Below, piece by piece: positions 41,158-42,453 of a stretch of 64,000 nt of DNA. This stretch comes from Pachysolen tannophilus NRRL Y-2460 (Eukaryota), in NCBI GenBank assembly GCA_001661245.1, contig KV454018.1, positions 631,569-695,568 of the forward strand, read 5' to 3'. Under the pieces are notes generated by a model, which ran no database searches, was not told where the DNA came from, and saw only the letters and a program-made list of their open reading frames with translations. A program made the position numbers and the translations under genes. Positions within the stretch are counted from its first letter, which is position 1; each line of letters opens with the position of its first letter.

Positions 41158-42453
41158 ATGTATGCTTCTTATAGCTGAATCTTCTCTCATTTAGAGGAAG
41201 ATTTATTAAAAGATTGATAATGATTACATTCGTTGGTTAAGTATTAACTTGTTGGTACATAATATTACTTTGAGCATGACCGGTGCCATTTATTCATTTC
41301 TCGCTTTTAGGTGAATGAATTGAATATCTAAGGCTGAGATGATACGGTTGAACTTGAACTAGTTAATACTAGCGCGAAGAACATGCAATTTTTATCTTTT
41401 TCAAATATAAATGTTTTATTTTAAAAGAATTTCAAAGTGAATTACTAACTTTTAACTAATGTTTGCTTTTTTGCTTTTTTTTTTGGGTAATATAGGTCAA
41501 CTAGCGTTTTAACTAAAAATGTTCAAACTTTACACTTGAACAACCAAGAATCCAATGAATCACCTATTCTGAAGGCAACTTCTGCTGTTTTCAACTGGGA
41601 TGATTTCAAATTTGCTCCAATTAGAGAATCAACAGTTTCTAGAGCAATGTCTAAACGTTATTTTGAAGATTTAGACAAATTTGCCGAATCTGATATTGTT
41701 ATTATTGGAGCAGGTTCTTCTGGGTTATCTGCAGCCTTTGTCTTGGCAAAGGCAAGACCAGATTTGAAAATTGCCCTTGTTGAAGCTTTTGTAGCTCCAG
41801 GTGGTGGTGCTTGGCTTGGTGGTCAATTATTTTCAGCAATGGTTATGAGAAAGCCTGCTCATAAATTTTTAAATGATCTTGGAATTGAATACGATGATGA
41901 AGGTGATTATGTTGTTGTTAAACACGCTGCATTATTCTCTTCAACTTTATTATCCAAAGTCTTAACTTTCCCAAACGTTAAGCTATTTAATGCCGTTGCT
42001 GTTGAAGACTTGATCACTAGAAAAGACCATACTACGGGTCAACTAAGAGTCTCTGGTGTAGTTACCAATTGGGGTGCACTATCATTATCGGGTGCTCACG
42101 ATACACAATCATGTATGGACCCAAACACTATTAATGCCAATGTCGTTCTCTCTTCTTGTGGCCATGATGGTCCTCACGGAGCCTTCTCTGCAAAGAGACT
42201 CGAATCATTTGGTATTAAAAAATTGGGCGGTATGCAAGGTCTAGATATGAATGCTGCAGAGGACCAAATTGTTAAAAGTACTAGAGAAATTGTTCCTGGT
42301 CTATTTTTCTGCGGTATGGAGCTCGCTGAGTTGGACGGTTGTAACCGTATGGGCCCAACGTTTGCTGCAATGGCAATCAGTGGTGTCAAGGCAGCAGAAG
42401 AAATCTTGAAGGTTTACGACGACCGTAAGAAGATGAACTCAAAGTCTGCTTGA
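41158..42453 (+). CDS. THI4: Thiazole synthase (Cys-type); exons 41158-41159, 41496-42453
   Basis: AT|G joined across intron 41160-41495 (GTATGC...TACTAAC 41443...TAG) gives [16 protein letters not shown]...[13 protein letters not shown]...GAGSSGL...GGGAWLGGQ...QSCMDP...RMGPTF. Confidence 0.93.
41274..41386 (+). promoter_or_regulatory. TPP riboswitch aptamer inside THI4 intron
   Basis: P1 GCATG/CATGC, P2 ACCG/CGGT, P3 GCC/GGC with long extension, CTGAGA pyrimidine sensor (41334-41339), P4 CTT/AAG, P5 CTAG-TTAATA-CTAG, GCG junction. Confidence 0.93.

Follow-up and report, generated by a model that had tools for sequence, protein, structure and literature searches.

The THI4 gene of Pachysolen tannophilus carries a TPP riboswitch aptamer inside an intron that cuts its start codon, and the strand upstream of this aptamer is complementary to two partners, the P4/P5 arm of the aptamer itself and the branch-point region of the same intron. 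With a confidence that stays a little short of even, we propose from structural modelling that the riboswitch controls the removal of the THI4 intron: TPP would free a strand at approximately 41228-41273, which would bury the branch point and leave the intron in place. Positions are those of the window, the whole stretch of 64,000 nucleotides of DNA that was analysed.

The gene downstream of the aptamer is THI4 (thiazole synthase), which is illustrated by a Pfam Thi4 match (PF01946, 352 bits, E 1.3e-105) and by 75% identity of the product to Thi4 from Ascoidea rubescens, its best named match. The intron takes up 41160-41495 (336 nt), houses the aptamer and cuts the start codon as AT/G. The elements of the gene are the following.

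41158-41178 (+), feature with the start codon ATG (41158-60), cut by the intron as AT/G; read from the sequence
41160-41165 (+), productive 5′ splice site GTATGC; joining it to 41496 restores the ATG and the Thi4 frame
41432-41461 (+), branch-point region with UACUAAC (41443-49) and a second branch-like sequence, UAACUAAU (41453-60); predicted partner of 41231-41273 when the aptamer is folded
41494-41495 (+), 3′ splice site AG, the first AG past the branch point; exon 2 begins with G41496
41496-42453 (+), THI4 exon 2, from the Pfam Thi4 domain and the identity to A. rubescens

Because the intron splits the ATG, one and the same start codon opens either Thi4 in the spliced RNA or an ORF of six codons in the unspliced RNA. 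The latter reads ATG TAT GCT TCT TAT AGC TGA from 41158 and encodes MYASYS, with its stop codon at 41176-78. The spliced N-terminus (M plus 15 residues) is similar to the N-terminus of A. rubescens Thi4, MSAVLTELQTKLVLN. A start codon common to both ORFs was not found described for fungal TPP riboswitches in the portions of the literature that were available. Only one CTG codon is present in the exon at 41497-42453, within the N-terminal part that is not conserved (ATT CTG AAG), and such sparse use might suit a yeast clade with reassigned CUG.

Four DNA runs (contigs from one sample) were compared with the window; they display no joints, and a 1-T difference is the only deviation. It lies in the T-run at 41474, the polypyrimidine stretch upstream of the 3′ splice site, which has one extra T in all four runs. 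Two other introns were verified in the window, with the donors GTAAGT (21071) and GTACGT (22051), and just past the SurE-like gene that harbors both an N run (assembly gap, 22319-22527) is found between long T tracts. TACTAAC at 5644, 18676 and 46783 was considered as a mark of further introns and dropped, the context being coding or unsuitable by eye. Directly downstream of THI4, 42907-43248 encodes a protein of 113 amino acids with a single RRM (Pfam RRM_1, E 7.7e-17), which may resemble the small SF3b branch-site protein p14.

The aptamer was placed with cmscan, in which the Rfam model RF00059 (TPP) matches 41269-41398 on the forward strand over its full length (model positions 1-105) with 50.6 bits and an E value of 6.4e-9 on 701 nt. 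This score falls below the curated gathering score of 54.3 bits, and for that reason a scan of the whole window at gathering reported no TPP aptamer. The shortfall is accompanied by a missing P3a and a 37-nt insert in P3. Absence of P3a and a long P3 insert are common among eukaryotic TPP aptamers. The P1-P5 architecture is nevertheless apparent in the alignment, which comprises GGCUGAGA (the conserved CUGAGA junction), the pairs of P2, P4 and P5, and the UUAAUAC..AGCG loop and junction. The alignment is read as follows.

41274-78 with 41382-86 (+), P1
41279-82 with 41345-48 (+), P2
41285-41334 (+), P3, with the long insert
41353-56 with 41376-79 (+), P4
41359-62 with 41369-72 (+), P5
41363-68 (+), L5, and 41357-58 (+), J4/5
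41350-41381 (+), P4/P5 arm of 32 nt, target of the anti-aptamer strand

On the strength of a full-length model match in the expected gene and intron, the assignment of 41269-41398 as an aptamer of the TPP riboswitch class, presumably able to bind TPP, can be regarded as established.

Upstream of the aptamer, the preliminary description had pointed to a strand at 41240-41253 that complements 41357-41370 at 13 of 14 positions and had called the target the J4/5-P5-L5 arm. Both statements hold. When AGTATTAACTTGTT (41240-41253) is set against the reverse complement of AACTAGTTAATACT (41357-41370), 13/14 positions are Watson-Crick pairs, with an unbroken run of 10 bp and a single mismatch of T41250 opposite T41360. 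The label of the target is correct because the cmscan alignment places 41357-41370 in J4/5, the 5′ strand of P5 (41359-62), L5 and the first two bases of the 3′ strand of P5. The strand is delimited as follows.

41228-41257 (+), anti-aptamer (anti-P4/P5) strand with the core 41240-41253, from complementarity, duplex energy and shuffles

Chance seldom produces such a complement. When the 114-nt intron segment upstream (41160-41273) is compared with the P4/P5 arm of 32 nt, at least 13/14 complementary positions turn up in 2 of 1000 dinucleotide shuffles, and 6 of 1000 contain an exact run of at least 10; when the comparison takes in the whole aptamer, 13/14 is found in 0 of 300 shuffles and a run of at least 10 in 4 of 300. 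When the same geometry is placed elsewhere in the window, which has 28% GC, 98 of 17,762 (overlapping) placements reach 13/14, as do 77 of the 10,492 with a GC content below 0.30. Extended by energy, the duplex spans 41228-41257 and 41351-41379 and reaches -18.7 kcal/mol, a value attained by 39/2000 shuffles of the upstream side and 55/2000 of the arm. The P4/P5 complement upstream of the aptamer that belongs to the NMT1-type (Mukherjee Type I) arrangement is thus present, and an anti-aptamer strand acting as in N. crassa NMT1 is plausible on the modelled pairing.

The second partner of this strand is the branch point. Without constraints, the MFE of 41150-41500 contains the folded aptamer, and three helices zip its flanks together, 41265-73 with 41432-40 (9 bp), 41251-57 with 41443-49 (7 bp) and 41231-41 with 41451-61 (11 bp). 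In the middle helix, GUUGGUA (41251-57) pairs at 7/7 positions with the branch point UACUAAC (41443-49), and it does so in the full-length MFE for 5/5 tested 5′ starts.

41231-41273 (+), anti-branch-point strand, consisting of 41231-41, 41251-57 (GUUGGUA) and 41265-73, from MFE helices and duplex energy; it overlaps the anti-aptamer strand

With the branch-point region 41431-41465, which was picked as the test region after the MFE had been inspected, the upstream intron forms a duplex of -20.9 kcal/mol that is matched by 3/2000 shuffles each way. When 45-nt windows of 40950-41385 and 41497-41700 are compared, the best partner of the branch-point region begins at 41231 with -20.0, and the next reaches -15.5 kcal/mol. 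Out of 3000 shuffles of 41225-41273, 12 match the arm energy, one matches the branch-point energy and none matches both. When all of the intron past the aptamer (41387-41495) is taken as the partner, the duplex of the upstream strand is unremarkable (-27.3 kcal/mol, reached by 150/2000 and 222/2000 shuffles).

The hexamer GTTGGT occurs twice in the switching strand, 19 nt apart (41232-41237 and 41251-41256). UACUAAC at 41443 and UAACUAAU at 41453 likewise form a branch-like pair, 10 nt apart, and each GUUGGU pairs with one of the two.

A third complement links the 5′ splice site to the aptamer.

41158-41177 (+), 5′ splice-site region complementary to the aptamer 3′ strand 41371-41388, from duplex energy and shuffles

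The duplex between 41158-77 and 41371-88 amounts to -14.5 kcal/mol, which is reached by 14/2000 and 13/2000 shuffles, and no other 22-nt window between 41200 and 41496 pairs better with the 5′ splice-site region than the aptamer 3′ strand does. In the MFE with the anti helix enforced, this duplex stacks on the anti-P4/P5 helix, and both co-occur in many truncated folds. Just past the 5′ splice site, 41176-41205 forms a stable local hairpin (9 bp + 3 bp) whose 5′ strand begins at the stop codon of the micro-ORF.

All structural results derive from single-sequence folding of an AU-rich RNA. The anti-P4/P5 helix and the branch-point helix have 41240-41 and 41251-53 in common, and they therefore exclude each other and cannot nest. 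Ensembles in which either the aptamer or the anti helix (13 pairs) is enforced lie 0.5-2.2 kcal/mol apart over five transcript boundaries. In transcripts that start at 41100-41150 (three boundaries), the branch point is unpaired with a mean probability of 0.12-0.24 when the aptamer is enforced versus 0.69-0.77 when the anti helix is. The contrast vanishes at the two of five boundaries that start at 41000 (approximately 0.18-0.24 versus 0.18), because the leader at 41037-63 is predicted to take the branch-point region; this leader segment is the second-best predicted partner of that region (-15.5 kcal/mol, 43/1500 shuffles). In free ensembles without ligand the branch point is already mostly paired (0.09-0.27 unpaired), so that an ON state would need kinetic control. 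Truncated transcripts contain the anti helix in their MFE for 18/50 combinations of start and end, none of them with the start 41100, and the idea that nascent-transcript folding robustly favors this helix was rejected on that count. For the 5′ splice site, the models predict a lower rather than a higher accessibility in the anti state (0.25 vs 0.52 unpaired).

The leader at 41037-41124 harbors a 4-codon uORF at ATG 41046 (ATG ATT AAG CTT TGA), and it also contains GTGGGT (41039), another TACTAAC (41109-15) and, at 41123-24, an AG. Judged by these motifs, the segment from GTGGGT at 41039 to the AG at 41123-24 could be an 86-nt intron in the 5′ UTR.

In the proposed mechanism, the expression platform of the TPP riboswitch would contain a switching strand (about 41228-41273) with the 14-mer as its core. 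At low TPP, this strand would pair with the P4/P5 arm (41351-41379), possibly supplemented by the pairing of the 5′ splice-site region with the aptamer 3′ strand. The aptamer would then be unfolded, UACUAAC free and the intron compacted, and splicing of 41159^41496 would rebuild the ATG and allow Thi4 to be made. At high TPP, the ligand would lock P1, P4 and P5 and release the strand onto 41432-41461, where the branch point would be buried in the 7-bp GUUGGUA:UACUAAC helix between the 9-bp and the 11-bp helices. Splicing would fail, the intron would be retained, and the ATG would open the 6-codon ORF instead of yielding Thi4. The aptamer, the intron with its two reading frames and the three complementarities with their rarity are shown by the sequence analysis; the formation of the helices in vivo, a shift of their balance by TPP and the retention of the intron instead of splicing from alternative donors are what we infer from these models. 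The fuller picture is a three-way toggle, in which a 45-nt intron strand holds P4/P5 without ligand and competes with U2 at UACUAAC with ligand, while the AUG yields either Thi4 or a decoy of six residues; it is possible and, on balance, somewhat doubtful.

The output drawn in the preliminary description differs from intron retention. It took 41160 as the productive donor and proposed that low TPP hides two further donors, GTATTA (41241) and GTACAT (41255), whose use at high TPP would leave the micro-ORF in the RNA. Six GT hexamers are listed in 41150-41280.

41160 (+), GTATGC, with G at +5
41232 (+), GTTGGT, with G at +5
41236 (+), GTTAAG, without G at +5
41241 (+), GTATTA, without G at +5
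41251 (+), GTTGGT, with G at +5
41255 (+), GTACAT, without G at +5

GTATGC at 41160 is the sole hexamer that fits a yeast donor form at 6/6 positions, and splicing from it to 41496 rebuilds the ATG and the Thi4 frame, which bears out its role as the productive donor. The micro-ORF was likewise judged correctly, as every product except 41159^41496 keeps it. The two hexamers named as alternative donors are present as described, but both lack the G at +5, which standard yeast introns conserve strongly, even if splicing does occur in some that have no G5 (excerpt of PMC6726248). Their masking survives for one of the two: between the modelled states, the predicted unpaired probability of GTATTA shifts from 0.00 to 0.58, whereas that of GTACAT (0.49 and 0.42) counts as unchanged. 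The GTTGGT copy at 41251 is predicted to have a partner in either modelled state, the arm in one and the branch point in the other (0.08 and 0.09 unpaired).

A switch of the NMT1 type (Type I) is in our judgment unlikely; in it, an alternative 5′ splice site within 41232-41260 would be hidden by the P4/P5 arm at low TPP, and at high TPP this site would be joined to 41496 with the micro-ORF kept. The precedent is sound, as the masking of a second 5′ splice site by P4/P5 of NMT1 without ligand, cited in the preliminary description, agrees with the excerpts of PMC5997356 and PMC3597705. The complement to P4/P5 is real and rare, GTATTA does move between the states, and the two copies of GTTGGT (41232 and 41251) are better donor-like (G1, U2, G5, U6) and are located inside the extended duplex; moreover, C. 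parapsilosis DUR31 employs GTTGGA as its second donor (excerpt of PMC5997356), and the yeast introns that splice without G5 leave room for the named hexamers. However, the two hexamers that were named lack G5, GTACAT keeps a constant accessibility, and the copy at 41251 stays paired throughout. The second donor of C. parapsilosis, furthermore, is used with and without thiamin and never in the reporter (excerpt of PMC5997356). Of the earlier interpretation as a whole, the anti-aptamer strand is supported, being rare and near-isoenergetic with its competitor, while the named donors are not: on the sequence and the modelled folds, sequestration of the branch point is better supported than an output through alternative donors.

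It is quite unlikely that the complementarities have no regulatory role, in which case the helices would be AU-rich by-products and the aptamer would act through sterics, protein factors or transcript stability, or would have lost its function. Such a reading could draw on the sub-threshold Rfam score, on the dependence of the folds on transcript boundaries and on the whole-region duplex test, which is not significant. Near Thi4 relatives, no TPP element was matched at E <=0.001 in the 17 of 80 metagenome loci that were scanned (the 8 most similar and 9 others with usable upstream sequence), and a regular expression for the core motif over all 80 loci gave four distant matches (L028, L052, L053 and L062, with 55-61% identity on short contigs), which were set aside because they carry no information on the helices of this yeast. 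By-products would, however, have to account for three separate complements, each at about 0.1-3% of shuffles and all falling on parts with a function (the P4/P5 arm, the P1 3′ strand and the branch point), for a joint test in which 0/3000 shuffles match both energies, and for the full-model match with an E value of 6.4e-9 in the expected gene and intron.

Least probable, and improbable in itself, is a bridge like that of N. crassa NCU01977, in which the apo contact of 41158-41177 with 41371-41388 would bring the donor near the branch point and the 3′ splice site and promote splicing, TPP would close P1 and break the contact, and the 14-mer would add stability only. The duplex is as rare as described above, is the top partner in the intron and stacks on the anti-P4/P5 helix, with which it co-occurs in many truncated folds. 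As in the alpha-alpha′ pairing of NCU01977 reported by Li and Breaker (2013), a segment near the first 5′ splice site complements the aptamer on its 3′ side, with the P1 3′ strand included (excerpt of PMC3597705), and deletion of the riboswitch abolishes splicing in DUR31 (excerpt of PMC5997356). This pairing of the 5′ splice-site region with the P1 3′ side is found here in silico, but the 650-900-nt intron, the separation of about 500 nt and the several alternative donors of the NCU01977 type (excerpt of PMC3597705) are not: the intron has 336 nt, the separation is about 210 nt, and a set of consensus alternative donors is lacking. The donor (UGUAUG, 41159-64) is moreover itself enclosed in the pairing, an arrangement that ought to impede U1 and not assist it. 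Since P1 contains the palindrome GCAUGC, the 5′ splice-site match may be incidental in part.

The proposed retention of the intron can be compared with the known TPP splicing switches, for which excerpts of the cited papers were at hand. With NMT1 (THI5) and THI4 of N. crassa, the P. tannophilus gene shares an aptamer in an intron before the main ORF, an upstream complement to P4/P5 and a short ORF in the non-productive RNA (Cheah et al. 2007, via excerpts of PMC5997356, PMC3597705 and PMC7404189). In contrast to those genes, whose 5′ UTR houses the intron (same excerpts), the P. tannophilus intron begins inside the start codon; its complement overlaps no donor with a +5 G that is free in the bound state, and the strand is also the predicted partner of the branch point, with intron retention rather than a second donor as the likely output. 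Type I combines an intronic aptamer that precedes the main ORF with a short retained ORF, and the present gene is a variant of it, because the ATG is common to both ORFs rather than belonging to a separate uORF in the 5′ UTR. In NMT1, TPP binding is accompanied by repression of the branch site (excerpt of the review PMC7404189).

The DUR31 introns of C. parapsilosis and Ogataea polymorpha (Donovan et al. 2018, excerpt of PMC5997356) likewise come from budding yeasts and are similar in length (336 nt here versus 351 bp in C. parapsilosis), and they too carry a TACTAAC branch site and a non-consensus hexamer of the GTTGG type upstream of the aptamer. They differ in that DUR31 encodes a transporter and has its intron inside the coding sequence, and neither anti-P4/P5 nor branch-point pairing was found described for it in the available text of PMC5997356. 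In C. parapsilosis DUR31, the only budding-yeast TPP intron studied, thiamin raises the unspliced RNA, the second donor is unregulated, and the mechanism is called unknown (excerpt of PMC5997356). In the THI4 and THIC genes of algae (Croft et al. 2007, via an excerpt of PMC5997356), which belong to a different kingdom, TPP-dependent pairing of the branch point that prevents splicing has been predicted, as it is here. By analogy, the retention model fits the DUR31 data, the branch-site repression in NMT1 and the algal predictions. THI4 riboswitches as such are already catalogued, with 13 budding-yeast rows in table S1 of PMC5997356.

The anti-P4/P5 principle is thus already known; what may be new is that one strand also masks the branch point and that the intron splits the start codon. 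To our knowledge, TPP is the sole riboswitch class known in eukaryotes. If true, the toggle would be the first explicit mechanism for the TPP riboswitches of budding yeasts, whose mode was called unknown in 2018. The splicing signals are strict (GTATGC, UACUAAC and the first AG), so that the masking predicted for the branch point lends itself to simple assays, and since the DUR31 intron is fully functional once moved into S. cerevisiae (excerpt of PMC5997356), the same reporter could serve for the THI4 intron. Should the model fail, the locus would be one more catalogued THI4 riboswitch. If it is true, it would offer a small ligand-controlled intron for yeast engineering, and it would show how an anti-aptamer strand of the NMT1 style was made to work with a spliceosome that accepts few alternative donors.
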